Part shown: piece after piece, positions 6,010 through 55,814 of the stretch | Numbering within the stretch: the first letter of the stretch is position 1 | Layout of the letters: each line of letters opens with the position of its first letter | Assembly (NCBI GenBank): GCA_022705745.1 | Contig: JAKJDW010000004.1 | Span: 3,614-67,613 of the forward strand | Length of the DNA stretch: 64,000 nucleotides | Origin: Patescibacteria group bacterium | GTDB lineage: Bacteria > Patescibacteriota > Gracilibacteria > Absconditabacterales > Absconditicoccaceae | Direction of reading: 5' to 3' | Translations under genes and position numbers: made by a program | Notes under the pieces: model-generated | Told to the model about the DNA's origin: nothing | Databases searched by the model: none | What the model saw: the letters and a program-made list of their open reading frames with translations, nothing else

Positions 6010-6083
6010 AGCGGGTAACGGGACTCGAACCCGTACGAACAGAGCTGAAGTCTGCTATGCTACACCAACTACATCATACCCGC
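6010..6083 (-). tRNA. tRNA-Gly with anticodon UCA, the decoder of reassigned UGA codons
   Basis: RC GCGGGTATGATGTAGTTGGTGTAGCATAGCAGACTTCAGCTCTGTTCGTACGGGTTCGAGTCCCGTTACCCGCT folds as a cloverleaf. Acceptor GCGGGTA/TACCCGC, D stem ATGT/GCAT, anticodon stem GCAGA/TCTGT, loop CT-TCA-GC, T arm ACGGG/CCCGT. G1:C72, C2:G71, G3:C70 and U73 are the bacterial Gly identity set. Confidence 0.85.
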
Positions 6084-25823: not shown

Positions 25824-28800
25824 TTATAAATTAAATAAATACTCCAAATACTCTTCTTTCAACTGCTGATATTTTTGAACTATCGGTGGCGGAACAAGCT
25901 CATTAATTCTCTGATTCAAAGAACTTGAAACCGTTGATGGATACTGAGATTCATACATCGCTTTGAATTCGTTTGTACTATAAACATTACCGTCAAGCTC
26001 TATCGTAGAATCTCAATTACTTATAGCTTTTTCTATCTGATTTAACAGGTCAAAATAATTTTTTATCTCACTATTGTAATACATCACTCTCCAGTTACTC
26101 TTTAGATATTCCTCAAAAACATCAAAATACTCTTTGTAAAGTTTGTTTTGATTCAATCTCTTTGTAGACAGTTTAGAATAAGGCATGTTTTTACAATAAA
26201 ATTTCTGTCCGCCGTATGTCAAACAAACCTGATTTCAGAAATTCTGTAATTTCGCCGTTTTTAATACGCCAAAATCATCAACAATAATAGATTCCAAAAC
26301 TCAATTGGATACCAAAAACTTTTGTCATTCTGTTGGATGAGGATAACAAAATTTATCAAAAATAATATTTTTGTATCATAGTTCTATGCAGGTTGCCTTG
26401 TTTGGTAACGAAAAATTTCATGTAAGCAAAGTCTCTTGATGTGGGACCAGTATTCAAGCAAGTTTTTTCTTGGTGCTTCAGATTTTCAAGTAAAATCCAT
26501 TAGCCAAATTGATATTTTTTGAATATCATTGTGAAAGTAAAGAAGGATCTGACTCATTTTCATCGTTTGTGGACAAAGAATCTATGGATGAACGAAGTAC
26601 AGAAGGATCAATTGTGTAAAGTAATCGTACCGACTCTCAAAGCGAATCCTTCCCTTTTGGATTTGGGATTAGTCAAGTAATTTTTATGTCTACTCCTGTC
26701 AACTCATTTTCTTCTTTTTCCAAAAGTTTATCCTTCTCTGGATCATAGCTATATGTGGCAAAAATCGTATCTTCATACATCAAAGAAATCGTAGTAGCTT
26801 TAGTGTTTGGGAAGCTAAAAGTTCATCTCAAAGTTTTTGTCTCGTTTGGCGATATTCATCAATAATTTTTCAAGGATTTTTTGGTAGTATTTACCATTAA
26901 ATAAAATCATTCCGAAAACTGAATTGGGAATCATTTATGCATAGTGATTGTAATTTCCTCCTTGTCCTTATCATCTCACTCCGGATCATACAGAACATAG
27001 TCTATGGTAAACTCATAATCATCCAAAATTTTAGTTTCTTCTACAGGACACAATCTTTTTCAAAAACATGGAGAAGCCCGCAATCACAAGCTATTTTGTT
27101 GAGCATATTTTTGAGCTGATTGAAATAATGATTGATATTTATAGTTTTTTCATTTATATGAATACTCTCGTGCATATCAATTTTTAACTAATTTTTCGTT
27201 TATATTTTCTCAGTTCAAAAAAACATATCACACAAACCTATCAAAATCATCTTTTTCTGCTTGCTGAAACGAAATCGTTTTATTTGCGAGTAGGGAATTA
27301 AGATATTCTTTTGCTTCTGGCCCAAAACATTCAACTTTCCCACATCTCAAAGCAGAAGATTCTGGTGCGTCTATTCAAGCAAGTCTGATATTAAACTCCT
27401 GTTCCAGATAAGAAATTTTGATAGTATCTCCATCAATAATGGAAATAACCTTGTATTCTCCGTCTGGAATTTCTTTGATTTTGTTTGGATTGTAAATGTA
27501 TGTGTCCACTATTTGCTGGTTTGAATTGAGAATATGAACAATTACAGGATTTTTGTCTTGGGTACTATTTGGTAAGGTATAATCTCACTTGAAAGTCTGC
27601 TCAGCCCCAAAAGTTAGAATTCATTTTAGACTTTTATTTGTAGCTTTCCCCTCTTTTATATATTGCAAAGTGTATTGTGACAGATCAACCTGTGTTCCAG
27701 TAAGTAGTAATAATGTAATAGTTTCGTTATCTTTATCAGATCAAGGTGGATCATAGTCTATATGTTTTATCTTTATGTTTTTCAAAGAAGCTATATTTCA
27801 GGTGAAAAGTTCTTCTTCCAATTCTTCATCAATCTCTTCTTCATCTATATCTATCCAGAACTCTAATTGGTTTTGGATATTTTCTTCATCTGTTCCACTA
27901 GCTTTGGACATAGAGTTTCTACAGTATCTATCTATAATTTTTCAATCTTTTATCAGATTTATACAATGATCAGTTTTTGTAGGGAATCAGTACTTTCAGA
28001 CAAATGACATAGTCTCTTTGGCGAACAAAGTATTTCATTTTATTGATTTTATTTCCCCATCAAATCATTGAACCTTGTAATCTCTAAGATTAATATCGGA
28101 ATTAGTTTTATTTTTTAATTTCAAAATCTGATAGTTTCAATAATATTTCAAGCTAGATATTTGTATATCTCAGTTGATGGAATCGTTGGTGTTGAATTGG
28201 AATCATTCAGCTTGCGGACAGAATCATCATCAGTTATTTACTTTAATATATTGAACAACTGGCTCCGGAGAAATCTGAATAAATTGGCTTTGTCATATTG
28301 TCATTCATGGCGAAAACTTGTCTACATAATCAAAAACTCCTGCACACTGAATGAGATCAGTTCACATATACAAAGATATTCATTGGGTTCATCAATTTAG
28401 ATAAACTATATCCAACACTTCCAAATCAGCCCCATCTTTTCAATAAACAATGAGCCATCCAGAACTATTTAAAGAAAAATTTGAATCATATAAGGAATCT
28501 CGTCATTCATTATATCGGACATCGGAATCTGTGATGAGAAACCTCTTTCCTAGTTGTAATTCAGTAGAACTGAGTACGATTTCCTGATCCAAAGCAGATC
28601 CTCAAAGTTTTATTTGAGGGTAATCATCCCCTACATCATCCGTAATATTCAGCTCCACATAAGAAGGATAAATTCAGCTTCAATAGTAAACTTCAGAAAT
28701 ATCCAAAATCCAATCCGCATAAAAATCATCGCAATCTATCGGTATATTTAGATCGTTTCCTGTGTTCCCGGGGTCTGGATTGTAAGGATTTTTGTTTAAT

Positions 28801-30155
28801 GTAACATCTATCAAATTCTCTCAAGTGGTGAAATATTTAGTTGGATTTGCTGCAATTCATCGATTAGTATTATAGTATCTGTCAGAATTTAATCCAACTA
28901 CTGTTGTTGTCCAGCTATCTCATGTTCAAATTTTTTCAAAAGAAGTTTTGTAATCTTGATAATAATCCACATAACTTGAATGAACAAAAAAATTATCCAA
29001 AACCTGTCCAGATCGTATTAAATCTAAGTTGAACTCTTCATTTGTGAAATTGATGGAATTAGCTATTGTCTGAATATTTTTTCATGTCTGAAACATCGAA
29101 TAAAGAGAATTTGCAAAAACTTTGGATACTCAGGATGGAATATTTGCAGAAAATGTGAAATTGAGATTCCCAGAAAGACTCAATTCTCCAGAGAATGTAT
29201 CATTTCAAATATTTGTGATTTCAAACCGGTTTTCATCTCAATCAAAGTAGATTTCCGTAGTTTTTAATTGAGGAATATTAGGTTCAGTTCAAGAATATTC
29301 GTTTAAATATTCTAGTTTAAAAGAACCAACTCATAAGTTTCATATTCATTTTTCGTATGTAAGTGTTATTTGTGTGACTGTGTTTGAAACACTAAATATG
29401 ATATTTTTTTCTTTATTTGGTAAGAAATCCGCAAATTCAAAAATAACTTCATCATTTTGATCTGTGAATATTGCTTTTCCGGAAAATACCGATCCTCAAG
29501 GAACAGAACTACCATTTGCTTTTGTTCGAACAGTTGCTTGTGCACCTGTTGTGAGTATGAATTCTGGACTTTTTAGTCGATCTCAAGAAGAATCAAATTT
29601 TAATTTAGGGGCTGTTGATGTATAATCACTACCTAATCAATAGGCTGTTCGTCATGTTGGGAGATTGGCTCTTCCATCCGCAAAAGAAACATCAAAAACA
29701 ATATTACCATTTCATTCTGTCGTCAATTGAGCTACTAGAGGGATAAAATTTTCTTCGCCAAAAATTTCATCGTTCCCAAAATCATCATCCATACAACTCT
29801 CATTGATAATTTCACCATTTGTCGTATCATCCCAAAATCAAGTCTGTTCATTTTGTCATTCTCCAACAAAATATTCTCAATTTAAGTCTGGGTTTTCTAA
29901 ATTGACACCTACGAATAAATTATTGTCTAAAAGCTGTCCAGTCTGTCAACCTTTGGTTATCGGTCACCAGAAATCGTCGTCTGGCTCTGTGTTTTCTAAG
30001 CTTCCTTTATTTTCAAAAAAATCGTCACTTAAGTTTGACGATTCTTGTTGTGGTTCCTTATAGTTTTCTACCTTATCTCATCGAACAAAACTAGAGGAAA
30101 AAACAGATTGAAATAAAATTAAAATAGACAATAATACAGACAAAATTTTTTTCAT
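25824..30155 (-). CDS. Giant secreted nuclease (1443 aa): signal peptide, about 800-aa beta-rich region, SNase (thermonuclease) domain and lamin-tail-like (LTD) repeats
   Basis: The frame is open over 4332 nt under code 25; I walked it codon by codon and saw no TAA or TAG. N-terminus MKKILSVLLSILILFQSVFSSSF. LTD-like IKHIDYDPPGSDKDNETITLLL, IDYVLYDPEGDDKDKEEITIT and ITGLIPNPKGKDSLGESVRLLY. SNase core YKVISIIDGDTIKISYLEQEFNIRLAGIDAPE...CFGPEAKEYL...DDFDRFVGYVFLNGENINEKLVKNGYAREY. Confidence 0.8.
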
Positions 30156-42117: not shown

Positions 42118-42161
42118 GTGTTTAAAAAAATGGTTGTTGAAATATTCAACAACCATAACTA

Positions 42162-42662
42162 TCATATAGAATTAAAATTTTTTTTCTTTCTTTCATATTT
42201 TTTGTTTATTTTATGTCTTGGGAATATTAATTTGTTTGTTAAATTCCCATCTAATAAACAAAATACATCTCCCCTATTTACAAGGGTCTTATGATTTTTT
42301 GTTTTGTATGAAACCCAATAAATCACATTGGATTGTATTGGGACATTTAAGAAATCATAAATAGGTACCTTTCCAAATGTTATCTTTGGTTTATCTTCTA
42401 GTATCCGGATTTGAAATCCAGAAAATTCAAAGTCTTGTATGTCTTTAAATTCTTTCGAAGATGCGCCATGTCCACCATTACAAACAAAAATGTTTAAATT
42501 GGTGGTATAAGTTTTTATTTTTATTTGTTTCTTTCCATTTGTATGAATTTTAGCCTGGAAAGTGGCTGATTTAATAATATTGGGGACAATTTTCACTGTT
42601 TCTAAACAAGGGTATGTCTCCTTTAACCCTTCAATTAAAAAAACAATAATTACTTCTTCCAT
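42162..42662 (-). CDS. Hypothetical protein (166 aa) with no in-frame TGA
   Basis: Complete standard-code ORF MEEVIIVFLIEGLKETYPCLETVKIVPNII...VCNGGHGASSKEFKDIQDFEFSGFQIRILEDKPK.... All of its Gly codons are GGN, unlike neighbouring genes. No family recognised. Confidence 0.6.
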   Translation of the reverse strand: MEEVIIVFLIEGLKETYPCLETVKIVPNIIKSATFQAKIHTNGKKQIKIKTYTTNLNIFVCNGGHGASSKEFKDIQDFEFSGFQIRILEDKPKITFGKVPIYDFLNVPIQSNVIYWVSYKTKNHKTLVNRGDVFCLLDGNLTNKLIFPRHKINKKYERKKKNFNSI

Positions 42663-43059
42663 TTTTTTGAATTTTAGTTTTATTTTTTATTACAGTACGG
42701 ATTTTTTAATATAAATTCTTTTTCGTAAATCAACCGTTTTTTAATTTTAGTTTTAATATTGGATTTTAGTTGAAGCGAGATATGTTCTCTTATAAATCTA
42801 ATTATAACAAAAATATAAGCAAAATTTTGTTGATTAAAATATGGAGAATGTATGAAATATTAACGAAATTGAGCGAAATATAAATATATTTTATCTACAA
42901 AATGGGTAATAAATTTGATTTTTCAAGACACTTTAAATTAAATTATAGATTTTTGAGTTGTGAAAAAAGTTTCCTTATTAAATTTAAAACCGAATTTATT
43001 GAAAATCAAATTTATTTATTTATTATCAGAATTAGAATTTATATTAAAATTTTTATTGG

Positions 43060-44181
43060 ATGAATAAAATACTTAAAAAATTTTTAATCTCTTTTTTTAT
43101 AACTTTATTTTTCTATGTATTAATATATTTTATTGTATTTTATTACGACTATGCTTGAGAAACTATTTTACGATTCAAAAAAAATATTTATTATTTAATT
43201 TTTCTTTTTATTTCCATTGTTTGAGGTTTAAGTTTATACGGAAACGAAAATAATAAATCAAAATTTATTATTTCTATAATATTTTTAGTCAATTTTGTAT
43301 ATTTAATTTTTATTTTTAGTGTATGAAATATTTGATTAAGCCGAATTCAATGATTGTTTTTGATATGATTTTTATTATTGTGATTGGTTTTTAGTAATTT
43401 AAGAAATCGAGTTTGAAATGTTGTAATTATTGCCTCTGTATTATGAATTTTTTTAACAATATTTTTTACACTCATTCCTTTATATTGAGAATGACCAGAT
43501 CTTGAAGGATTTGAAAATAATTTTGAAACACAACTTATTACATATTCCAAAATAGGTTTACATACTAATGTAGCTATTTTAGAAAAAGATAACAAAAAAT
43601 ATAATTTAATAAAATGAATTAAAAATTATGATTTGGCTATTTGACCATCATGATCAAATATAACATTTAAAGCAAATAATTTATATTTAAATGCTTTTTG
43701 ATATATTTTATTTAAAAATAAAGAAATATTACAAATATATCCTCAAACAGCTATTAAAATAAACCCTAATTTCGAAATAGAAATAATAACTGGAATGGTA
43801 AAATATTATCCACAAGAAATTAAAAGTTTTTCTTTTACTGGAAAAAATATAGCTTTATTGATTGTGGATCAAGAAAATATTGATATTATTTTGGGGCGAT
43901 ACGACGATCAGTTAAAAAATTATATTTGGGAACAAAATGGAAAAGAAATTCACCAGAATAAAACGATTTTATTAATTTCAAAAAATACTTTAGAATTTTT
44001 GAATAAAATTTTCCCAAGACAATTTAAACAAAATTTAGAAAATTTTGATTTGTTTGATAAATATTTGGAATATAACTTAGAAGAAAAAGAAGATCTAAAA
44101 ACCTTTGATCAAGAAAATATAAAAAAATGAATATGGCAAAGTGTAAAAGATTGATTAAAATTTACAGAAATTATCAAATAA
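43060..44181 (+). CDS. Hypothetical integral membrane protein (373 aa; about 5 N-terminal TM helices plus a soluble C-terminal domain)
   Basis: MNKILKKFLISFFITLFFYVLIYFIVFYYDYAGETILRFKK...FLIGFLLLGLVFSNLRNRVGNVVIIASVLGIFLTIFFTLIPLYGEGPDLEG...MVKYYPQEIKSFSFTGKNIALLIVDQ.... In frame with track ORF 43795-44130 and joined by TGA codons. Confidence 0.7.
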
Positions 44182-44183
44182 AC

Positions 44184-44810
44184 TTAGTCAAAGTCTATTT
44201 TCAACTGTCAACCCTTTCCTTCAATAATTTTATATCCTCTTGTATCTGTTTTTTCATCTGTTTTTTTATCTATTTTTTTGTCTGTTTTTATTGTATTTCA
44301 AATTTTTTCTTCTGGAGGTAAATTTTTTAAGTCTGGAATATGTCAAGGAGGTAAAATATTACACTCCAAATCAATAGATAAGATATCTTCCTCATGTTTT
44401 CGGATTGGGAGCATTCATTCTTGTCTAATAATTTCTGATTCTTGTTCCATCTCTTCTACTTCTTCCATTAGTTTCCATATTTCTTCTTGTTTCTTGATTT
44501 CATATATATTTAAAAAATGAAGATATTTACTATATAATCACATTAATGGTTTTTTTGTTTTATTCTTTATATAACTTAAAGATTTTTCTTCTAATAATGG
44601 ACGATATATTTTTTCATGAAAAGAGATGGAAAAACTTTTCTCTTTTCGAATGTTTTTTATTTCTCCTAAATGTTCTCTTCAATTTTTAAAAAAACTTAAT
44701 AAAATATCACTTCAAAATCTTGTTGATAATTTTTCCCAATTAGTAATGTATTGTTGTTTTTCATCATTTTTTAAATATTCTTTCCATTCTTTTTTAAAGG
44801 TTTTATCCAT
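44184..44810 (-). CDS. Hypothetical charged protein (208 aa)
   Basis: MDKTFKKEWKEYLKNDEKQQYITNWEKLSTRFGSDILLSFFKNGREHLGEIKNIRKEK...EEVEEMEQESEIIRQEGMLPIRKHEEDILSIDLECNILPPGHIPDLKNLPPEEKIG.... Ends in TAA, 3 nt from the convergent gene. Confidence 0.55.
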
Positions 44811-45254
44811 TTCAATTTATTAATAATTTAAAAAAAATTAACTAACAGTGTTTATTATAATAATTTCTTTTGTTTTGTCAAGTGCTATTTTTATTTTGAA
44901 ATACAAGAAATACAATCCACATTTTAATTAAAAATCTACTTTATATTATTGTTTTTTAATTAAAAAGTTTCTAACATTTTTTGAACTTTTCAACAAAATA
45001 TTATAAATACTTTTTATTTAGTTTTGTATATTTTTTACAATTCAACATTTTTTTTACACAAAAGCTTTTTAATAAAATATAGTTATAATGTAGTAAAACA
45101 AATTTCAACAATTTTTTATAAAATATATATTATTATTGTTATTAATTTTTTAAATTTATATTTTAAAATTTAATATATAAATAACAAATTATTTGTTGAA
45201 AAGAAAAAAACAATTCTTATATTAAAAATAATAATTTATTTTTTTATAAAGAAA

Positions 45255-45662
45255 ATGGAAATATTTAAAAGATCTATTTTTGGTTTGGTTTTTTTGTCAT
45301 TAATTTTTTATTTGTTTTATTTGTTTTTCAATTGAATAATTGTGGTAAATGAAAGCTTTTTAGATCAAAATAATATTATAATTTGACTTTATATTTTGAT
45401 ATTTTTATATTATTTAGTTTTTTATGTAATTAAACCAACTTATATCAAAAAATTTAAGTTACGAAATACTTTAATTTGAATATTTATTATTATATCCAGT
45501 CAATCTTTCTTTTTAAATTCTGGACATGAATGATTGTATTTTGCTGATATATTTACAGTAGTTTGATTATTTTTAACTATAATTTGACCAACAAATTTAC
45601 TTGTTTCCAAAAAACTAAAACAAGAAAAATTAGAAAAAAAGATGGAAATTATAGAGGTTTAA
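45255..45662 (+). CDS. Small membrane protein (135 aa, about 4 TM)
   Basis: MEIFKRSIFGLVFLSLIFYLFYLFFNGIIVVNESFLDQNNIIIGLYILIFLYYLVFYVIKPTYIKKFKLRNTLIGIFIIISSQSFFLNSGHEGLYFADIFTVVGLFLTIIGPTNLLVSKKLKQEKLEKKMEIIEV. Confidence 0.55.
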
Positions 45663-45788
45663 TGTATTTTTGTGAAAATATGGTAAGATGTACAAAAAAT
45701 TCAGTAAAAAAGTGCTGGATTTTTTTGCTTTTTTTTAAAAAATATTTATAATTAATTTGTATTATATTTATTTAATAAAATAATAAAA

Positions 45789-46403
45789 ATGACATGAGTT
45801 GAAAGTTCTGGTGAAAAAGGATTTTTTGATAAAATATCGGATTGAGTCAAAACTGTATGGGAGAAAGCAAAAGAATTATTTTGACAGATTGCTGATTGGT
45901 TTAAAGAGATGTTTTGAATTGAAAGCAAAACGCAAAAAAGTTTAACAGAATTAGCTAAGGAAATTGTAGAAAATCAAACAAAAGATGATCTTAAAAAATT
46001 AATTAAAGATATGGAAGAGACCACTTGATTAACAGAAATTGAGATGAAATTTATTTGAAGAAATAAAGAATTGTCTGATTATTATAAATGGTTGAAAGAT
46101 AATTTATCGGAGAAGGTTGCGAAAAAAGAAATGGATATATTTTTATCTAATTTTATTGAAAAAACAAAAAGTGATGATAAATTAACTACAGATGAAGAAA
46201 AACAATTAAAATCAAAAATTTTGACTAGCGATGAAAAGAAGGAGTTATTAGGAGATAAAAATCTTCAAAAAATTATTCAAGAGATAGTTGATAGTTGAGA
46301 AGATTATAGTGTTAAAGAAATAATTGCTGTTTATGATAAAAATGAAACAAAAACGAAGGATGAGATTTTGAGTAAACTATCTGGAGAAAAGGATTTGGAT
46401 TAA
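45789..46403 (+). CDS. Hypothetical charged, helical protein (204 aa)
   Basis: MTGVESSGEKGFFDKISDGVKTVWEKAKELFGQIADWFKEMFGIESKTQKSLTELAKEIVENQTKDDLKKLIKDMEETTGLTEIEMKFIGRNKELSDYYKWLKDNL.... In frame with track ORF 46071-46298. Confidence 0.55.
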
Positions 46404-46438
46404 GATTTAATATAATAATTTATTTATTTGAGTAAAAG

Positions 46439-47419
46439 ATGTTGATAGAGCAACGAAGAGAAGAAGTAGCAAAAGAGTATATAGACAATTTAAAGTTACA
46501 GGAAACAGATTGAGTTTTGAAACAAATAGGTGATTTATTGTGATTATTTAAAAAAGAAATAGAAGAAAAAAGTAAGTTAACAAAAGATGTAGAAAAAAAA
46601 TTGCAAGATTTTTTAGTTTCTGGTTGATTATTTTCTGAATTTAAATGATTTTTTTCAAGACTATTATTGCCCTCAGAAATTCAGAAAAAATTAGAAAACG
46701 CAAAGGAGGTACTTAAAAATAGTACAAATAAACAAGAAGCTAGAGAAAAATTATGATTATATGTTAACAAAGAACCAGAAACTACTGTATTGAAAACAGA
46801 AAATCTTGAATGAGATGCTAAGTGAGGTGTTGAACAAAATCTTGATGATGAAAACTTATTAACAGATAGTAAAGAATATTTAAAAAATTTTTCTGAAGCA
46901 GAGAGATATGTTATAGAACAAGCTAAAAAATATTGAATTACTGATAAAAACCAGATAGCCTATATTTTAGCAACAGTAAAATGAGAAAGTAATTTCAAAA
47001 ATATCAAAGAATTTTGATGAAAAAATAAACGATATTGAAAAGATAATTATTTTGGTAGAGGTTATGTTCAACTTACACACAAAAGTAATTATAGGAAATT
47101 TACAAATATTATAAGAAAAAATAAACTACAATTTAAAGATAATTTTTGAAACAATCTTGGTAAAGAAGAGTTGAATTTGGTGAAAAACCCGGATTCTATT
47201 CTTAAAAGTAATGATTTAGCTGCTTTTATTTTAATTCATTGAATGAAAGAATGATTGTTTACATGAAAAAAATTATCAGATTTTGTTAACGAACACATGG
47301 TAGATTTTTATAACGCAAGAAATATTGTTAACTGAATGAGTAGTTCTCCAGGCAAATTTCAAAATTTAGCAAAAAAATATTTATCTCAAATGGAAGATAA
47401 ACAAAAAATTATAACATAG
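46439..47419 (+). CDS. Protein with a C-terminal GH19-like (chitinase/lysozyme-type) peptidoglycan hydrolase domain
   Basis: 326 aa. The N-terminal 150 aa are helical and unknown. Then ERYVIEQAKKYGITDKNQIAYILATVKGESNFKNIKEFGGKNKRYGKDNYFGRGYVQLTHKSNYRKFTNII...NPDSILKSNDLAAFILIHGMKEGLFTG. The block Y.GRG.iQLT...NY is typical of GH19-type endolysins. Confidence 0.6.
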
Positions 47420-47475
47420 TAAGTTTTTTTTCGTCATTTTAATAACTTGTTTAAATATTTATTTTTTTGTTTTAA

Positions 47476-47838
47476 TTAAAATAAGTTTACAACTAACCTT
47501 ATTATTGCGTATGATAATATAGATACGAAAATTGCTATAAAAGCTGAAAATATCATTTTATTTGCTGCAGACACAGAATCCTCTTTTCAACTGGCTGTAA
47601 TTAATTTTATTCATCAATAAACTAAAACAACCATAGCTACTCCAGCTATAGAAAACCAAAGATAATCGTTTATTATCTGTATTATATCAAAAATTGTACT
47701 TTCATCACTTTCTATTTGCGTGGGTCAGGTGACCACTATATCTTCTTGTCCATGTGGAACGGGTATGTTCATATTAAGTCAAAAAACATTTACCAAATTA
47801 AAACCAAATATAAACAATATTAACAATAATTTCATCAT
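47476..47838 (-). CDS. CPR-type pilin-like protein (TrbC/VirB2-like or T4SS-pilin-like topology), 120 aa
   Basis: MMKLLLILFIFGFNLVNVFG (signal) ...STIFDIIQIINDYLWFSIAGVAMVVLVYGGIKLITASGKEDSVSAANKMIFSAFIAIFVSILSYAIIRLVVNLF. It has two hydrophobic helices around a G-G...SG-D loop, the pattern of small pilins annotated in CPR genomes. Confidence 0.6.
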
Positions 47839-47862
47839 AGACTTTTTTTATAATTATAAATA

Positions 47863-48762
47863 TTAATTTACTATAGATCATCCTAAATCTTCAACACATT
47901 TAGTTTTCATTTCAGAATTATATATTCTTTTTCGCATACAATTCTTGTCAAAACTATTTCAATCTCATTCACATATTTTACACCTATATCATCATACCGT
48001 ATGAGCTTCCATTTTATCTGCGGACATAGAAAAAGGTGGTAGATATTTTCGTTCACGAAACTGCATTGTTCATTGAGGATGTCCAAAAGTAGATTTTAAA
48101 CAAATTTGTTCTTTTAAATCATTACCAACTAATATTATTGATCATGTTTTACATCAAATTTCAAATGCAGAGAGGTCATCACTAGTTTTTATGCTACTTT
48201 TTGGGATGGATATTATTAAATTAATTACACTTACACTTAATAATGCTAACATAATTCAGGAAACAACATAAATTAAATTTTTTTTGGATTCAGCTGATTT
48301 TCGGTCTTTTCATCACAAAACTTCTATCATATATTTTACAGAATTAAATATTATCATAGAAATAGAAAGGACAATAGTCATTCTAAGTAAAAACTTAGTA
48401 ATTCTAACTATCAATGGTGCTTTGGAATGAACATTTATTATTTCAGTTTTTCGTTGTCAACCCATTTGAATACAAGTTTGTTCGTTTAAACCTTCTTGTT
48501 TCACATTATTTATAAAACAAGCTGGTTGGAAAGGAGCACCTCATACTTCTATAACTGTTTTTTCTCTAAGAATAGTATCTCAAACTGTTTTTTTATTTTT
48601 TCATATATTTATTATATAATCATGACTCATAGCGGGATTGAACACCTGTTCCATTAAGTCTGTTCAGAAAGCGTTATCTAATAAAAAAAACCCACTTATA
48701 GAAAAAAAGAAACTTAGAATATAAACAATTAATGTTTTTTTATTTTTTTTAAATAAAAACAT
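47863..48762 (-). CDS. Membrane protein (299 aa) with an internal pilin-like two-helix module and a Cys-rich C-terminal domain
   Basis: MFLFKKNKKTLIVYILSFFFSISGFFLL...APLIVRITKFLLRMTIVLSISMIIFNSVKYMIEVLGGKDRKSAESKKNLIYVVSGIMLALLSVSVINLIISI...CKTGSIILVGNDLKEQICLKS...GGYRCKICEGDGNSFDKNCMRKRIYNSEMKTKCVEDLGG. Confidence 0.55.
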
Positions 48763-48766
48763 TTTA

Positions 48767-49177
48767 TTAAAGGTTTTTAAGTAAATCTTCAGCCTCTTCT
48801 TTTTCTTTATCTCTAATAAGGTCTTCTTTGGTTTGTATACTAGTCATCGTTTTTTGATAGTGTACGGCATCAAATTTAGTTTGATATTTTTCTTTGATTT
48901 CTTCTTTTTTCTTTTCATATTTTTCTTCAATTTCAGCTATTTTGTCTCTTTCTCTAATAAGAATCTCTTTTAGCTTATTTACCTGTTCTTCGTTCATCAT
49001 AGGGACTAAATTAAACCAATTTTGTTTTTCTTCGTCTTTCGATAAAGACCTAGAATTTAATACCAAGATTACAGCATCAGGATGGTTTTCCAAAAAATAA
49101 TCTGGAATATTAAATTTTGATGCCTTTTCCCATAATTCTTGAGGTAGTTTTTGTTTTATAAGTTCTACATTAGTCAT
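48767..49177 (-). CDS. Acidic coiled-coil protein (136 aa), no Gly at all
   Basis: Complete ORF MTNVELIKQKLPQELWEKASKFNIPDYFLENHPDAVILVLNSRSLSKDEEKQNWFNLVPMMNEEQVNKLKEILIRERDKIAEIEEKYEKKKEEIKEKYQ.... It lies 25 nt after pilT and 4 nt before the next gene, so it appears to be in the same operon. Confidence 0.65.
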   Translation of the reverse strand: MTNVELIKQKLPQELWEKASKFNIPDYFLENHPDAVILVLNSRSLSKDEEKQNWFNLVPMMNEEQVNKLKEILIRERDKIAEIEEKYEKKKEEIKEKYQTKFDAVHYQKTMTSIQTKEDLIRDKEKEEAEDLLKNL

Positions 49178-49202
49178 TTTTTTTGATTGTTAGTTTATAA
49201 AT

Positions 49203-50282
49203 TTATATTTTTGTTGAATTTTTATTCAAAATTCATTCAACATCATTTGGATTAATAATACCTTTATCTATCAAAGTTTCTGCATATTGTTTTAAAGTTA
49301 TCATTCAAACCGTATTAGAGGTTTTTATAATGTTATTTATTTGGTTCATATCTTGCTTTTTAATATTTGTTTTTATAGATTGAGTATTCAACATTAACTC
49401 AAATATTCATATTCTGGCTGAATCATCCATACTTTTAACTAAAACTTGAGACTGAATTCCGATTAAAGATTCAGAAAGTCTTTCAGCAATGCTTCATTGA
49501 GTATTTGGTGGAAAAAAAGATATAAATTTTTTTATTGTATGAGAGGCAGAATTTGTGTGTAAAGTACTAAAAACCAGATGTCCAGTTTCTGCTAAATTTA
49601 GCACAGCTTCTGCAGTTTCTTTGTCACGAATTTCTCAGACAAAAACTATGTCAGGATCTTGCCTCATTGCTGATTTTAATGCATTTGCAAAAGACCGAGT
49701 ATCTTTTCAGATTTCTCTTTGTGATATAATACATTTTTTTGGTTCAAAAACATATTCTATAGGATCCTCTATTGTTATTAAAATTCTAGATTTATTTTTA
49801 TTGATTTCTTCTAGTATAGCAACTAAACTAGTAGATTTTCAATTACCAGTAGGTCAAGTAATCAAATATAACCCATTTTTCTTTTTTAAAACATTTTTTT
49901 TAATACTATTTGAAACACTATCCAACATAATATCTTCCAATTTTTTGGCTACTTTGTCGATTTTTCTCATAACAAGAGTAATTCCTCCAGTTTTTAGATA
50001 AGCATTTACTCTATAAATCGTTTTATCTTTGGATATGTAGGCAAAATCCGATTCTTTGTCTCATAAAAACTTATTAAATCTTTGAGAATTTCAATAAAAT
50101 AACTGTTTTAAAAATAATTCCATTTGTTCAGAGCTTATTTTACCAGAAGATTCTTCCTTAACAATCTTTCAGTTTAATCTATAAGAAATATATTCTCCAC
50201 TAGATAAATGTAAATCTGAAATATTTGGATTTTTGGCTATCAATGATAATGTTTTTTCAATATCTATTCAAGGATTTTCCAT
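49203..50282 (-). CDS. pilT: Type IV pilus retraction ATPase PilT-like (PilT/GspE/VirB11 superfamily)
   Basis: 359 aa: ...[21 protein letters not shown]...[123 protein letters not shown]. Both Walker A glycines flanking PTGN are TGA. Confidence 0.85.
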
Positions 50283-50528
50283 ATTTAAATTTATATTATA
50301 AATTATACGGTATTATTATAATAAAAAACATTATTTTTGTCAAAAAAATCGGGCTTTAATTTTGTGTTTAGTTTGACATTTGTATCAAAATAGTTTTTAA
50401 AAATAATTTTTGTAAATTTTAGGTCAATGAACTTAATTTATATTTTTTGCTTTTTTGTTTGCTTTTTTACTTTACATTATTATATAAAATACATAGAAAC
50501 TTTTACTTGACTTGTAATCAATTTTTTT

Positions 50529-51044
50529 ATGAGAACAAAGAAGCTCCGTACAAACACAGTAATCTTTTTGGTGGCAATACTATTTTCGCTTGTTTTGTTT
50601 TATTTTATGGAAAACCCTGTTTTTTTTTCTGCCAGTATTTTATCACTACAAGACGCTCAGACCATGATAGCAAATCATTGGGATTTAGCATACAAAAACG
50701 AGAAAAATGTGTTGGATGTTTTTGTTTCGGATACCATAAAAAATATAAACGAGCTTTCTGTTTCAATTATTTATGATGATCAAGAAGTTCAGATAGATTT
50801 AGATAATATCAAACAACAGTGTGATTATGAAATAGTATCTCAAATGGGATGAAGTTTGATTTTAAAATTTAAAAATTTTAATTGAAAATTTGATTATGGA
50901 CAGAGCCTATTTGAATTACCCTTTTGAGGTAAAGAACCATCAATATTGCTGAGTGAGTGAAGTGTTTTATTACTAAATTGAAATAATAAAACATTATCAA
51001 TATGATCGCTGAATCAAAACAAAGATTCACATCATGGATTTTAA
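50529..51044 (+). CDS. Signal-anchored hypothetical protein (171 aa)
   Basis: MRTKKLRTNTVIFLVAILFSLVLFYFMENPVFFSASILSLQDAQTMIANHWDLAYKNEKNVLDVFVSDTIKNINELSVSIIYDDQEVQIDLDNIKQQCDYEIVSQMGGSLILKFKNFNGKFDYGQSLFELPFGG.... Confidence 0.55.
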
Positions 51045-51062
51045 TAAAAAACCAATATGTAG

Positions 51063-52694
51063 ATGAATAAATTTTATAAAAAATTAGCCGTTTGAGTGTT
51101 TATGTTTTTTTCAGCCCTAGTTCCATTGGTTTCTTTGGCAGAGGAGCCAGATTCTTTTTCTGTAAAGGTAGAACCAGACACTTTTTGAGTTTGACAGCCA
51201 GTAGATATTACAATAACAGCACTCAAAAATGGTGAAATATTAAAAGATTATATTTGAGATGTTTTGTTTGAAATAAATTGATTGTTGCCGGATGATTATG
51301 TTGTTCCTAGTATGGGATTTTATTCTTTTTTACCCCAAGATCAGTGAACAAAGACCTTTTCAAAATGATTAGAAATTAAAAAAGCAGGTACATATCAAAT
51401 AAAAGTATCTGATGTTACGGATTTAAATTACGAATTTCACTGAACAGCGACGGTTGTTGTATGAAATGCTAGTTCAGATTCGAGCTTGAAACAAATAAAC
51501 ATAACTTCTCCTATAGATTCTTCTATAGAAAAAAAATCTACTATAAATATAATTTGATCTAGCTTTGATTTAAGGAACTCACCGATAGATGTTTATTTAA
51601 ATGATATCTTAGTTACCAGTTGACAAACAGATTCAATGTGAAATTTTAATGTATATGTTTGAAATTTAAACTCTGGACCAAACACTATTCAAATAAAAGC
51701 TGTAAATATAAATAATGTTTTATTGTGAGAATCTAATGTGGTGACAGTAACCTATCAACCCCCATTTGATTGAGTGTTTAATTCCATAGAAATAATACCT
51801 TCTTGAGTCTTAAAGGAATGAGATAAAGTTACATTTACTGTTTCTGCTGTAGATGAAGTAAGCTCAGCTCAGATGATATTTGATGATGGCACCAGCTATC
51901 CTTTGGATCTTCTTTCTCCAGGAATTTTTAAAAAAGATATAATTATGACAGATATTTTGGGTAATAAAAATATTTCTGTTGTTTTGATGTATGCATGAAT
52001 ACCGAGAAACTACGACAATGTTGCAAGTATTTTTGTGAAAGAAAACAAGGGTGTTGGGAATGTAAGATTTGTTTCTACTTGAGTGGATGGGACATCAGTA
52101 ATAGTTTCTTGGGATTCTAGATGACATTTTCCTAAATATAGAGTTTTTTATGGTACTGACCAAAATAACTTACAAAAAACGGTAGATATAAACGCTACTG
52201 GAGTTTTGATAGAAAATTTGCAGACTGATACAACTTATTATTTCCAAATTTCTCCTTTGGATGAATTGTCTAATATATCATGAGACCCTTCAAGTATTGT
52301 AGAATATAATCCACAAAAAGTTAAAGCTTCTTGTATTGTTCAGTGAATAGTGGTAAAATCTGAAAAAATATGAGATAAATATTTTTTGGTATGGGATGAG
52401 GTAAAAAATGCCACTAAGTACGAAATATATAGATCAGATTGGGAAGATATGTCAGATAAAAAGTTGGTTTGAGAAACGACAGAAGCTAGTTTTGAGTATT
52501 TTTTTGATAAATATGCAGAAAAAGATCAGTATGCATATTATCAAGTGCAAGCAATTTGTTCTGATGGAACTAGTGTTCTCATAGACCAAGCACAAAAAGT
52601 TCAAGTTTGACCGTTTGAAGATACCTTACTGATTATTATAGTTAGTTTGTTTTTGTATGCAGTATATAAATTATATAGGACTCAAAAATATTAA
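51063..52694 (+). CDS. Surface protein (543 aa): signal peptide, Ig/FN3-like repeats, C-terminal TM anchor
   Basis: MNKFYKKLAVGVFMFFSALVPLVSLAEEPDSFSVKVEPDTFGVGQPVDITITALKNGE...VIVSWDSRGHFPKYRVFYGTDQNNLQKTVDINATGVLIENLQTDTTYYFQISPLDELSN (FN3-like) ...KYEIYRSDWEDMSDKKLVGETTEASFEY...LLIIIVSLFLYAVYKLYRTQKY. Confidence 0.7.
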
Positions 52695-52751
52695 CGATCG
52701 TTTTTTGTCCATTTTTTAAATTGTGCTTTATTGTTTCAATTTTTTATAATT

Positions 52752-55646
52752 ATGTCTATGTTTCCAAAAAAATATATAAATAAAAATAAAAACATACAAA
52801 GATCATCTTTTCCCTCATCAAAATTTATTTATTCAAGAGCTTTGTCTGCTGATCAAAAGGTTCATCCTGGAGCTCTGTTTTTAATTTTTATGAAAGACTA
52901 TATTTCTAAAATGAGCTTATGGGGTTCTGATGGGCTTGATTTTGATATAAACTTTGCTTTGTCATCAAATTGGTATTCCAAATTAAATAGAAATAATGTT
53001 AATTTAAAACAATTACAATTAGATCTTAAAAAACAAGTGAAGCAGAACATAAAATTTTTGGAAAAACTTGGATTTTCTTTTTTTATAAACGAAAATCATT
53101 TTGTTGTAGATGAAAAATTTTATATTTTTCTTAGAGAAGTTTTTGTTAATTTATATAAAGATTGAAAAATTCATTTAGAAAAAAAAGTAGTTTCACGAAG
53201 CAAAGAATTACAGACAAATGTATTGAAGACCAATCTGTTTATTAAAAAAAAGAAAAAAAAGGAATTTGTTATTAAATATTTTATAGAATCTAAATGAGTT
53301 TCTATTAGTGTTCCTACGAAAAATCTCAAAACTATTTTTGCAGATGTGGCTGTAGCTGTAAATCCACAAGATAAAAGATATAAAAAATTGATATGACAAA
53401 ATGTAATTATTCCAATAATAAATAAAAACATACCTATCATATGAGATGATAGTGTGGTTTCTTTTGAGTGAACTTGAGTGGTTAGAATTACACCATGACA
53501 TGATGAATATGGTCTTGAAATTGCACAAAAACACAATTTACCAACAAATATATATGCAATAGATGTTGATGGAAATTTTACTAAACATGTTGGAGATTTT
53601 GTTGGTAAACCTGTGGATGTTTTTATTGAAAATGTTGAAACTTATATAAATGATATATGAAATTTAGAACAGATAAATGAAACGGAAGAAGAGCTTATGT
53701 ATTGTGCTAAATCTGGGGAAGAACTATATAAAATTACTATGGATCAGTGGGGTATTAAATATGATTACTCTTTAGATTTTTTGCTTCAAAATTTTGAGAC
53801 AAAAGATATTACAATAAAGTGATTTGATGTAGAAAACCACATTTTGGATTATCTCAAAGATTTAAATTTTGTTAATATTTCCAACAAATCTGCAAAGGGA
53901 ACCTTAATACCGGTTTTGTATTCTGAAAAATGACAAAAATATTTGATAAATGATGATGTTTTGGTAGAGCAGTATAAAATTGCAAAGTCCAGAAAAGATC
54001 TCACACTAACTGCTGTAATACTCAATTTAGTTTTGGATAATCAATTAAATGATGTTTTTAGCATAGAGGAGCTTGTTGATGTTTTGTTTTCTTTTGATTT
54101 TTCTGGTGGCGTCAGCAAGCTTTCAAAATATATAGATATTTATGAAAATACTGAAAGATCTAGTTTAAAAAACTGACTGAAAGGCATTAAAAGGCTTTTG
54201 TGAAAAATAGAAAGAGATTCTGAAAAAATAATGATTCTTTTGGAACTTTTAGGAGACAGTTTTGCAATAAAGTCTGATTGAGAACGCTTTAGTTTGGATT
54301 TTTCTGCTATTTTTTGATCTCAAGAACCATTGGTTTTGCAAAAACAAGATAGTTTTAATAAAGATTTTTTGGATACTGTATGGTTGTTGTTTAAAAATAA
54401 CCTTTGAAAAAGTATGGAGGGATATTCTGGTATAAAAAACTTGTGAAATATATTTATTTGAACAAAAGATGATAAAGAATTTTTTGTAAATTTGTTACTA
54501 CTGTGATTGGATTATTCCAAAACACTATTTTTTTCAGATTCGCTATTTATTCCTTATTTGACTGACCAAGAATCAAATATTATTACAAATTACAACTCTA
54601 AATTTTTAACAAAAGAACTTTCTGGAATACTTGATTTGTTCAATTCAGACTTGCTAAGATTACTTTTGTTGTTATGACAAAAAGAAAACAACAAAGTCAT
54701 ATTGGATACTAATAATATTGAATATATACATTTTATGTTGAATAAAGTTTGGAATGCATACAGATATGTTTACAACAACTACATTAATTGAATTTCAAAA
54801 ATAAACATTAAAGAGCTTTTTAATTTGATAGAACAGGACATAAGTGATTATGATAACTGGATTTTGCATTGACTCAAATCTCTGCTAGAAGAATTAAAAA
54901 ACAAAAATAAAAACATATTGGATTTTGGGTCTAAAATTTTAAAATTTATTATCAATGATCTTTGTGAAAATTATTTGGAGTCTACTAAAATTTATGAGTA
55001 TGAGAGTACTCCGCATGTAGCTTTGTTTTCTTTTATCGTTTCTTTGGAGATTTTAAGACCATTGATGCCGTTATTTATGCAGGAAATAGAAAAGCTATTT
55101 TTTAACAAGCTTAAAATATCGAATTTTGATATAAGCACTATATGAGATTTTAATTTGAAAGAAAAAAATTATAGAATGAATATTTTTATGGATATTGTAG
55201 ATAAGCTCAAAAAAATAAAACAAAATTTATGAGTTAAAAAACATGAAACAGTAGATGTGTTCGTTCAAGCGAATTTGGAGTTTATAAATTTTTTATCAGA
55301 AAGAGAGGATCTATTGGAAGCCTTGTTAAACATTAGAAATATAGTTTATGTTAAAGATTATGAAAAAACACCATCAGATTATGAAATGGATAATGTAATT
55401 GATATAAATATTTGAGCCAAAAGTGTTTCAGAACAGATTGGAGTAACTAAAAATGTGTTGATGGAAATGGAAGAAGATTTAAAAAACAAACAAGAATATT
55501 TACAACATATGAAATCTTTGATAAGCTCCATTCTTTCAACAGCATCTATGGAAATTATAGAAAAGAAAAAACAAGATATTCAAAATTTACAAAAAGAAGT
55601 GGAGGAACTGGAATTTAAAATTAATAAAATGAAGATAAAAGGATAA
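52752..55646 (+). CDS. Valyl-tRNA synthetase homolog with degenerate HIGH and KMSKS signature motifs
   Basis: 964 aa. ValRS-like editing (CP1) block [66 protein letters not shown]. Blocks FVNLYKDG, NKVWNAYRYV and a C-terminal coiled coil are also present. HIGH reads VHPGAL (about 52861), DWCISRQ.WWGH.IP reads NFVNISNKSAKGTLIP, and the KMSKS position reads YNSKFLTK (about 54590). Confidence 0.75.
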
Positions 55647-55814
55647 TGTTTATAAATTCATCATCAATTAGAAAGTACTGATGTAATGTTTTTAAAATAG
55701 TTTGCATTTTGCATTTTTTTTATTAGTATAGCACAACACTTGTTTTAGTGCTACTGTTTTTTAGAATAATCTGTGCTTTTCTGTAAATTATATTTAAATT
55801 TTTAATTTATAGTT

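Follow-up and report, generated by a model that had tools for sequence, protein, structure and literature searches.

A conserved AT-rich cluster of pilT, genes for VirB2-type pilin-like proteins and a putative wall hydrolase in Absconditabacterales (SR1)

The type IV secretion systems (T4SSs) described from Patescibacteria are of the monoderm type, derived from MPF-FATA systems, have gained VirB2-like pilins, which often occur in arrays, and usually come without a relaxase (Quinonero-Coronel et al. 2025, PMC12102498). Within the class Gracilibacteria, the genes for their parts do not form a cluster with virB4, and no VirB6 can be detected (PMC12102498). Southlakia epibionticum requires its T4SS, pilins included, to grow as an epibiont (Wang et al. 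2023, PMC10633639), and in TM7 a murein hydrolase is encoded in the T4SS operon. PilT is not mentioned in the above survey (0 occurrences in PMC12102498), and no entry for Absconditabacterales was found in its supplementary tables. Here we discuss a group of genes around pilT, situated between positions 42159 and 52694 of a stretch of 64,000 nucleotides (contig JAKJDW010000004.1 of assembly GCA_022705745.1; hereafter the window) from a bacterium of the order Absconditabacterales. An earlier note on this DNA had described the region as a very AT-rich island of mostly unrecognisable genes, encoding an envelope-spanning appendage, a secretion or contact apparatus, or an integrated element carrying one. 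We are highly confident that its core (43060-50282) is a conserved native cluster and not an island, and we see about an even chance that this cluster is a vertically inherited surface-filament or contact module related to the T4SSs of Patescibacteria, comprising a T4SS-type filament, a wall hydrolase and pili retracted by PilT.

The organism is a code-25 bacterium of the Absconditabacterales (SR1), in which TGA encodes glycine: when TGA is read as sense, open reading frames (ORFs) of 150 or more codons cover 56.8 kb of the 64-kb window, compared to 6.5 kb otherwise, and all window proteins were translated with table 25. A tRNA with the anticodon UCA (6010-6083, minus strand), which is labelled SeC by ARAGORN and has the Rfam score of an ordinary tRNA, likely is the decoder of TGA as glycine. 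The window has an overall GC content of 29.9%. The Absconditabacteria (SR1) include, to our knowledge, the only cultured predators within the Candidate Phyla Radiation, and the organism of the window probably is host-attached. Judged by the PilT protein, its nearest genomes are metagenome-assembled genomes of Absconditabacterales/SR1; in the best relative (L001, JALOAF010000002) housekeeping proteins are about 90% identical to those of the window, and several metagenome assemblies in ENA, one of them labelled as anaerobic digester, hold contigs identical or about 99% identical to it, ERZ27249271, ERZ2648087 and ERZ941557 being examples with identical contigs. Comparisons were made with the loci of twelve SR1 species (L001-L012), further SR1 loci (L027-L030, L036-L038; L027 possibly is a chimeric contig), conspecific strains (L031, L033, L034) and other Patescibacteria (L013-L015), the loci of relatives comprising about 20 kb.

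In each of the twelve SR1 species loci, the genes for a protein of 136 amino acids (aa) and for a large pilin-like protein follow pilT on its own strand, and the gene for a small pilin comes next wherever the contig reaches far enough; no orthologue of the latter was detected in L010 and L012. The same order is seen in L028-L030 and in the distant L036-L038, the small pilin gene being missing in L027. The usual SR1 arrangement reads MurG...SecF-RNaseIII-LytR-(389-aa lipoprotein)-pilT...5-TM-(AsnRS, PhoH)-HflX, where 5-TM denotes a protein with five transmembrane (TM) helices. In the window as well as in L001 the entire block from pilT to hflX lies in the opposite orientation, which fits an inversion and indicates that the core moved as one unit. 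Synteny in relatives, which the earlier note had proposed to examine, thus has the core genes staying together across the Absconditabacterales. Compared to L001, the PilT, 136-aa, 5-TM and 4-TM proteins are 80-88% identical and HflX, DnaJ and PpdK about 90%, whereas the pilins, the hydrolase and two charged proteins reach just 40-72%; it is thus the exposed or secreted parts that are fast-evolving. In seven of eight relatives, too, the cluster has a lower GC content than the DNA on either side.

These observations bear directly on the idea of a horizontally acquired island or an integrated conjugative or phage element, by which both the AT-richness and a gene without TGA at the edge of the region would be explained. 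The region does contain the lowest-GC stretch of the window, yet the low GC content is common to relatives. The edge gene (42159-42662) lacks internal TGA and is hypervariable between strains, but all core genes use TGA heavily for glycine (63% of the glycine codons inside the region, 54% outside), and this orphan gene has no relative in viral contigs or phage genomes. An island could further be argued from the weak match of the small pilin to a pilin of integrative and conjugative elements (ICEs), from the endolysin-type domain of the muramidase (both discussed below) and from an IS110 element that some strains carry as an insertion about 4 kb further left; set against these are the order-wide synteny of the core and a divergence that tracks the housekeeping genes. 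Scans of the region with Pfam, NCBIfam and PHROGs found no family of integrases, transposases or relaxases, nor VirB4, and, apart from the endolysin-type domain on one protein, no phage family (PHROGs). As for the att-like repeats or the tRNA-adjacent integration that the earlier note had suggested to look for, the repeats found at the borders are all AT sequences of low complexity, no more than 85% identical and none of them a credible att site, and the nearest tRNA is about 36 kb away. A prophage or a defence island was considered and rejected, PHROGs having returned endolysin-type matches on one protein only and PADLOC nothing meaningful. Because of the synteny, the shared low GC content, the native use of TGA and the lack of mobile-element genes, att sites and tRNAs, a recent island is excluded for the core. 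We regard acquisition of the region as an island or integrated element as very improbable, and the "integrated element" of the earlier note is not supported.

The AT-richness seen in the earlier note is real. GC content is 24.3% between 42159 and 52694 versus 30.9% in the remaining window, and 23.1% in the core; the lowest-GC stretch of 10.5 kb within the 64 kb (24.1%, beginning at 40601) mostly overlaps the region, and GC at the third codon position is 0.174 for genes inside versus 0.232 for genes outside (Mann-Whitney p=0.003), the first and second positions being lower too. Among the spacers, the values are 11.9% (44811-45254, fittingly described before as almost pure A/T), 17.9% (42663-43059) and 14.3% (45663-45788). 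The right border is gradual, with 25-27% GC still found at 53-59 kb, and the contrast partly stems from GC-rich interspersed repeats elsewhere in the window, none of which lies in this region. The repeats in question (at 9.3, 14.7-16.3, 21.4-21.8, 23.7, 34.5, 38.2-38.6 and 60.2 kb) form an intergenic family, interspersed or in tandem, with 45-55% GC and 80-97% mutual identity; they give rise to spurious short ORFs and are absent from 42-53 kb. In the strains L031 and L033, an IS110 transposase gene at about 38.2 kb lies beside one of them. Local GC skew tracks gene orientation. A replication origin as source of the AT-richness was rejected, since 30 DnaA-box-like 9-mers compare to 23±4.8 in shuffles and are unclustered in the spacers, with no DnaA box cluster in 44811-45254. 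The low GC content is a long-standing trait of the cluster, with its membrane and charged proteins rich in Lys, Asn, Ile and Phe, its AT-rich control regions and its lack of GC-rich repeats. The earlier note had stated beforehand that an average composition together with scattered orthologues would speak against it; windowed GC and codon usage set the region apart from the remaining window, with a native use of TGA for glycine, and the orthologues are syntenic. Its list of twelve genes also stands, in agreement with public gene calls on identical contigs. Most of their products indeed belong to no recognised family, seven of the twelve being without a significant match in Pfam, NCBIfam and PHROGs; for six of the seven, PADLOC gave marginal matches only.

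The relation to the secretion systems of other Patescibacteria comes from two pilin-like proteins. The smaller one (120 aa; 47476-47838, minus strand) is predicted from hydropathy to consist of a signal peptide (residues 1-20) and two TM helices (about 55-80 and 95-118) connected by a short charged loop, as in VirB2-type pilins. The T4SS pilin family PF18895 matches nine of ten small-pilin orthologues (best 2.7e-8) and also appears in the precomputed calls on the orthologues of L036-L038, and a weak match (E=4e-4) was obtained to NF045849, a pilin-like conjugal transfer protein of Mycoplasma ICEs. A profile search with the small pilin against PDB returned no match. The second protein (299 aa; 47863-48762, minus strand) has a signal peptide, a Cys-containing ectodomain, a TM hairpin (at about 117-184 by hydropathy) and a Cys-rich C-terminal ectodomain with eight Cys residues. 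Its hairpin matches PF18895 weakly (E=0.002-0.006), and within its SR1-restricted family (64 matches) PF18895 was found in 7 of 54 members (best 1.4e-4) and DUF6112 in 5 of 54. Aligning the families of the large and the small protein by hhalign brings the loop and the second helix into register (probability 28%, E=6e-4). In the AlphaFold2 (AF2) model of the trimmed large protein (pLDDT 66), residues 81-149 form a helical hairpin and the C-terminal domain is of alpha/beta type; Foldseek with this model found nothing at E<0.1 in PDB. Because none of the window proteins carries a class-III (prepilin peptidase) signal and because of the PF18895 matches, we classify both proteins on sequence grounds as VirB2/T4SS-type and not as type IV pilins. 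The type IV pilus implied in the earlier note by the pairing of PilT with pilins therefore lacks its pilin here, and of the "two small pilin-like proteins" the pilin-like nature, of T4SS/VirB2 type, could be upheld, whereas only the protein of 120 aa is small.

The first gene of this apparent operon (operon A) is pilT itself (49203-50282, minus strand), encoding a hexameric secretion ATPase of 359 aa. Its earlier assignment to the PilT family was confirmed by a TIGR01420 score of 349.3 bits, above the curated cut-off of 319.1, and by PF00437 (7e-48); the runner-up families are GspE (156 bits), PilB (154), TraJ (151), DotB (117) and VirB11 (58). Walker A and B motifs, Asp box and His box are conserved, and GPTGNGKST and DPDIVFVGEIRD align with PilT of other Patescibacteria. 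The C-terminal AIRNLIRE motif is needed for retraction in model PilTs. It is degenerate in the window (SIKTNIKK) and all SR1 orthologues follow S-I/V-K-T/N-N-I-K-K, while PilT of other Patescibacteria retains A-V/I-x-N-L/M-I-R-E; SR1 PilT in addition possesses a specific insertion of four residues. Across the twelve SR1 species loci PilT is 53-80% identical and is adjoined in each by the 136-aa gene. No pilB, pilC or type IV pilin gene lies beside pilT in the window or in the SR1 loci; in L013-L015, pilT is part of a canonical PilMNO-PilB-PilT-PilC-pilin-PilD operon.

This position outside the canonical operon also matters for the possibility that the locus is an accessory cluster of type IV pili, with the pilin-like and membrane proteins as unusual parts of a machine retracted by PilT. 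The ATPase is that of type IVa pili by score and its gene adjoins the others, and elsewhere in the window ComEC (22682-24541, minus strand; Competence domain 4e-43) and, near it, a secreted protein of 1443 aa with staphylococcal-nuclease and lamin-tail domains (25824-30155, minus strand) point to pilus-assisted DNA uptake; the two look like a pair for scavenging and taking up DNA, which would fit a PilT-retracted pilus. Still, we consider an accessory cluster quite improbable: the window holds no class-III signal motif, the small pilin matches a T4SS pilin family and forms a two-helix hairpin instead of a single N-terminal helix, and PilB, PilC, PilM/N/O and PilD are not encoded nearby, unlike in the type IV pilus operons of other Patescibacteria.

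Between pilT and the pilin genes lies the gene of the 136-aa protein (48767-49177, minus strand), a charged, cytoplasmic protein with a globular N-terminal part and a charged, probably helical tail. Hydropathy reveals neither a TM segment nor a signal peptide, and PDB, Pfam, PHROGs and PADLOC gave no match. Its family counts 1402 homologues, of which the best 120 span 133-160 aa, nearly all having 136; all named members among these best 120 belong to Absconditabacterales and none carries a Pfam domain. The alignment contains 35 invariant columns. The gene overlaps a spurious upstream ORF extension of the next gene, whose true start is at 48762. In the window, the order pilT, 136-aa, large and small pilin-like gene is kept with gaps of 25, 4 and 24 nt. 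Upstream of it a perfect sigma-70 consensus promoter (TTGACA-17-TATAAT, 12/12 matches; 50315-50343, minus strand) ends 33 nt before the pilT start codon. Promoter-like sites are overall no more frequent than in shuffles, and the position of this one alone is therefore suggestive. In distant SR1 lineages (L006-L011; L036-L038), pilT and the 136-aa gene are set apart by 220-320 nt or by a small ORF; the unit that is both tight and universal hence comprises the pilin-like gene(s) together with the 136-aa gene, pilT being a constant neighbour, and co-transcription of pilT and the 136-aa gene is not universal.

Such an arrangement could be taken for a hybrid machine, in which PilT together with the 136-aa protein directly drives the VirB2-type filament's assembly or retraction, in a role similar to VirB11 or DotB and independent of type IV pili. 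The adjacency and common orientation of pilT, the 136-aa gene and the pilin genes in SR1 loci (the small pilin being unseen in L010, L012 and L027), as well as the short gaps behind a single consensus promoter in the window, would suit this idea, but the gap, large enough for a promoter, or the small ORF in distant lineages does not. SR1 PilT is out of the type IV pilus context that it has in L013-L015, its AIRNLIRE motif is degenerate and it bears a lineage-specific insertion; by score, on the other hand, the ATPase is a true PilT/PilU (349), far above DotB (117), TraJ (151) and VirB11 (58). Monoderm-type T4SSs do without VirB11, and the Patescibacteria type acquired VirB2-like pilins (PMC12102498), while SR1-type bacteria are reported to have a rich set of type IV pilus genes, which needs PilT (PMC8080830), and a VirB2 filament driven by PilT has no known precedent. 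We therefore judge the hybrid machine unlikely. The same doubtful standing is given to its boldest version: PilT would have left the type IV pilus operon and become coupled, through its 136-aa partner, to VirB2-type pilins, forming a retractable filament that is not driven by VirB11 or VirB4 and that, with the leaderless hydrolase, serves to breach the host and to feed on it.

Convergent with operon A lies a second apparent operon (operon B) on the plus strand, encoding a 4-TM protein, an acidic protein and a muramidase. The muramidase (326 aa; 46439-47419, plus strand) has a helical N-terminal region and a lysozyme-like catalytic domain at about 150-320; hydropathy shows neither a signal peptide nor a TM segment. 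A profile of the catalytic domain matches PDB 8xcl_A (1.9e-7), GH19 chitinases and the PWe2 endolysin through ...GESNF... and Y-GRG-x-Q-L-T-H-x-x-NY, and the GH19 signature and the upstream Glu motif, reading YFGRGYVQLTHKSNY and KGESNF, can be aligned to 8xcl_A as well as to GH19 chitinases of plants and bacteria, which makes for a putative assignment of the catalytic residues. Among PHROGs, phrog_29753 (2.8e-25) and the endolysin phrog_181 (2.2e-16) were matched. The earlier designation as a GH19-like enzyme therefore holds, though Pfam Glyco_hydro_19 (PF00182) with 14.5 bits stays under its cut-off of 25.5. Action on the cell's own or on the host's wall, on murein or chitin, is a candidate activity. 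In relatives, the same slot is occupied by varying enzymes. It is GH19-like in the window and in L001-L003 and of SLT type in L005, L007 and L008; a C-terminal SGNH/GDSL esterase domain is found in L001, L003, L004, L007 and L008 and has been cleanly lost in the window. The slot proteins have 481-941 aa (L001:12792-14237, L005:13095-14759, L007:13942-16767, L008:12826-15582, L012:12432-14528), that of L012 (698 aa) lacking a recognisable enzyme domain. A large hydrolase-type protein beside the pilin genes thus is present in L001-L005, L007 and L008, with a relative devoid of such domains in L012.

The first gene of operon B (45255-45662, plus strand) encodes a membrane protein of 135 aa with four TM helices predicted by hydropathy and a highly charged C-terminal tail. 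Orthologues by the hydrolase or large-protein slot, next to the pilin genes, were found among close relatives (L001, L002, L005) as well as distant ones (L007, L008, L010, L012), with 32-83% identity, and searches of Pfam, NCBIfam, PHROGs and PDB profiles gave no match. Between this gene and that of the muramidase sits the one for an acidic helical protein of 204 aa (45789-46403, plus strand), which is devoid of a signal peptide and of family matches in Pfam, NCBIfam, PHROGs and PADLOC; its orthologues occupy the same slot in L001, L002, L003 and L028-L030 and are fast-evolving (29-77% identity). Operon B might accordingly be read as a domesticated holin-endolysin pair, a device for predatory lysis or similar to type 10 secretion, that releases the hydrolase onto the host's or its own wall, the pilin neighbourhood being mere gene order. 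Consistent with this, the muramidase lacks a signal peptide and its best families are phage endolysins (phrog_181 2.2e-16, PWe2), the catalytic domains are swapped between lineages in the manner of lysis cassettes, and a phage holin as well as secreted peptidoglycan hydrolases were proposed as predation factors of Vampirococcus. In the window as in L007, L008 and L012, a 4-TM protein with a charged tail is encoded upstream in the same orientation. Among the holin families of Pfam and PHROGs it has no match, nor among the LrgA/CidA families of Pfam. Other phage genes are lacking and the pair always lies by the pilin genes across the order, suggesting a shared function. Altogether we hold a holin-endolysin pair to be rather unlikely, though worth keeping in mind.

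Operon B and the neighbouring leftward gene diverge from a spacer of 444 bp with 11.9% GC (44811-45254), a predicted divergent promoter and control region, in which blocks are conserved between species (L001, L002 and L029). A perfect consensus promoter (44881-44854, minus strand) precedes this leftward gene, and a site with 10/12 matches (45196-45223, plus strand) was found in the opposite direction. Among the conserved blocks is TTCAACAWTTTTT, whose two perfect copies within the window both lie here, at 45041 and 45104; a related box TTTTCAACAAAA is found near 44985 and an inverted one, TTTGTTGAAAAG, near 45195. These boxes probably are operator sites of the divergent promoters. The leftward gene (44184-44810, minus strand) encodes a charged, fast-evolving protein of 208 aa without TM segment or signal peptide, for which Pfam, NCBIfam, PHROGs and PADLOC gave no match and orthologues (31-43% identity) exist only in the closer relatives L001, L002, L028 and L029. 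The core ends with another lineage-specific protein, the 5-TM protein (373 aa; 43060-44181, plus strand), which according to hydropathy and AF2 begins with its five TM helices and continues with a beta-rich domain and, at the C-terminus, a bundle of helices that probably is extracytoplasmic; the multi-TM character proposed earlier for the proteins at 43060 and 45255 is supported with five and four helices, respectively. The AF2 model, built on a translation with TGA as Trp, is of low confidence (pLDDT 60), and Foldseek with this TGA=Trp model returned nothing from PDB at E<0.1. An exhaustive profile search among 1.84 billion proteins yielded 108 representatives of the family; none of the 30 full-length members scanned contains a Pfam domain, and no PDB match was obtained. 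L001 has kept the protein with 80% identity; it is also retained in L002 and L005 and, weakly, in L007 and L008. Taken together, five core proteins (136-aa, 4-TM, 204-aa, 208-aa and 5-TM) have no match in Pfam, NCBIfam, PHROGs and PDB profiles, and for four of the five the matches in PADLOC are at best marginal.

How might these parts work together? In the contact module favoured here, the two pilin-like proteins would be exported by Sec and become membrane-embedded hairpins of VirB2 type, the two helices of which leave either end outside, from where they would be drawn into a short surface filament or conduit, which they would build or decorate, by T4SS machinery of the Patescibacteria (MPF-FATA-derived) type, whose VirB4 ATPase may be encoded elsewhere, as reported for the class Gracilibacteria. 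The large pilin with its disulfide-rich ectodomains could be a minor, tip or adhesive subunit. The muramidase, in relatives together with the SGNH esterase, would open peptidoglycan, either of the own wall for passage or of the host wall at contact, and PilT would retract type IV pili and so bring the cell up to its host, its gene being co-regulated with the filament genes. Formation of a filament, dependence on VirB4, the target of the hydrolase and the functional link to PilT are all to be understood as conditional. Of the appendage or contact apparatus envisaged in the earlier note, a conserved unit of PilT, VirB2-type pilins, peptidoglycan hydrolase and polytopic proteins remains, for which neither acquisition nor a reading as type IV pilus is supported.

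Several points weigh against this module. A VirB4-family ATPase is the hallmark of type IV secretion systems. No VirB4/CagE/TrbE was found in the region by Pfam and NCBIfam or by Pfam among ten other large window proteins, the remaining window genes being unscanned, and precomputed Pfam calls in L027-L038 contain no VirB4-type protein either. Nor were VirB6, VirB3/PrgI, TrsD or a coupling protein detected among the scanned window proteins and the loci of relatives of about 20 kb; since no other T4SS part was detected, the pilin family and the wall hydrolase alone make the link to T4SSs. The 5-TM and 4-TM proteins match none of VirB6/PrgH, VirB3/PrgI, VirB8/PrgL and TrsD in Pfam, NCBIfam and PDB profiles, though extreme divergence is possible, and the genes downstream of the pilins in L011 and L012 appear by eye to be housekeeping genes, with no T4SS genes among them. 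The small pilin of the window itself scores 23.6 bits against PF18895 (profile positions 3-68 of 71), under the gathering cut-off of 26.6, and for the large protein the pilin character is weak, with an hhalign probability of 28%. Signal peptides are missing from the muramidase and both charged proteins, which is unusual for VirB1-like enzymes, five proteins have no detectable relatives outside SR1, and the two AF2 models are without a structural match. Finally, conservation of gene order by itself is no proof that PilT, pilins and hydrolase work together.

Outside the conserved core, both edges of the region consist of genes with a narrower distribution. The gene at the left edge (42159-42662, minus strand) encodes an orphan protein of 167 aa with a hypervariable middle. 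It has no homologue in the SR1 species loci, where a PhoH-like gene and AsnRS are found instead, and takes the place of the PhoH-like gene. Between 42200 and 42500, 56 nt differ from L031, L033 and L034, in contrast to flanks of about 99.5% identity; the codon changes, of which 18 are synonymous and 24 non-synonymous, leave the reading frame intact. The earlier claim that this gene uses no TGA for glycine is correct for its interior (0 internal TGA versus 9 GGN codons), but a single TGA forms the last codon, directly before TAA, and if this TGA is counted as glycine the low use of TGA is of marginal significance (binomial p=0.007, uncorrected over about 50 genes). The strongest codon outlier of the window is another gene (18461-21319, minus strand), in which TGA accounts for 5 of 66 glycine codons (p=2e-16); its product is a surface protein of 952 aa, S-layer-like by a weak S-layer-homology match, and its low use of TGA could be due to very high expression or foreign origin.

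On the right side follow a signal-anchored protein, as judged by its hydropathy (50427/50529-51044, plus strand), and the FN3/Ig surface protein recognised before (543 aa; 51063-52694, plus strand), for which PF00041 (E=4.5e-7) and a C-terminal TM anchor were found. Next to them, a highly divergent ValRS-like protein (52752-55646, plus strand) reaches 265 bits against a valS cut-off of 704, mainly in the editing domain, and reads HPGA in place of the HIGH motif. The block 50283-55814 with these three genes is absent between pilT and dnaJ in L001 as well as from the other species loci. As neither 42159-42662 nor 50427-51044 and 51063-52694 have a counterpart in the loci of other species, the boundaries proposed in the earlier note were too wide. 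The edge genes of both sides are present in conspecific strains, and the small ones could at most be additions at the strain or species level.

The cluster is one of few envelope loci conserved across the whole order, and it offers about nine candidate genes for a contact or predation apparatus of SR1 bacteria. It extends the theme of T4SS pilins in Patescibacteria to a lineage with dispersed T4SS parts and illustrates that, where a genome is recoded and reduced, an AT-rich patch with many orphan genes is not necessarily of foreign origin.

Among the described systems, the T4SSs of Patescibacteria (Quinonero-Coronel et al. 2025, PMC12102498; Wang et al. 2023, PMC10633639) share with this locus tandem Sec-exported two-helix pilin-like proteins of PF18895 type, here two of them, a chromosomal and non-mobile location without relaxase, a peptidoglycan hydrolase nearby and, for Gracilibacteria, parts reported to be dispersed from virB4. 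They differ in that VirB4, VirB6, PrgI/VirB3 and TrsD were not detected among the scanned proteins of the window and in the relatives' loci, that one "pilin" here has 299 aa with two Cys-rich ectodomains, that the pilins are linked to a PilT ATPase and a 136-aa protein, and that nothing corresponding to the remaining five proteins is found in T4SSs described so far. With PilT/PilU (TIGR01420), the ATPase has in common a full-length match over the curated cut-off and the intact Walker A/B, Asp box and His box; unlike these, it is encoded away from pilB, pilC, pilM and type IV pilins and followed by T4SS-type pilins, its AIRNLIRE motif has decayed to SIKTNIKK, and it carries the SR1-specific insertion of four residues. 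The muramidase resembles VirB1-like and PrgK/TraG hydrolases and GH19 phage endolysins in its lysozyme-like domain, GH19 signature and long helical N-terminal part, but it has neither signal peptide nor anchor, remains under the Pfam GH19 threshold and has lost the SGNH domain; just as hydrolases of Gram-positive T4SSs pair SLT with CHAP, the SR1 relatives pair SLT or GH19-like domains with SGNH in a modular fashion. From holin-endolysin or type 10 secretion systems, with which operon B shares a small multi-TM protein with charged C-terminal tail upstream of a leaderless endolysin-type muramidase, it is set apart by the lack of a holin family match and of phage context and by the additional acidic protein between the two genes. 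T4SS-type pilins in Patescibacteria, PilT and GH19 lysins are thus already known; new are the fixed linkage of PilT, VirB2-type pilins and hydrolase in SR1, the universal 136-aa partner, the large pilin-like protein with two ectodomains, the leaderless hydrolase that swaps its domains, and several membrane proteins specific to the order.

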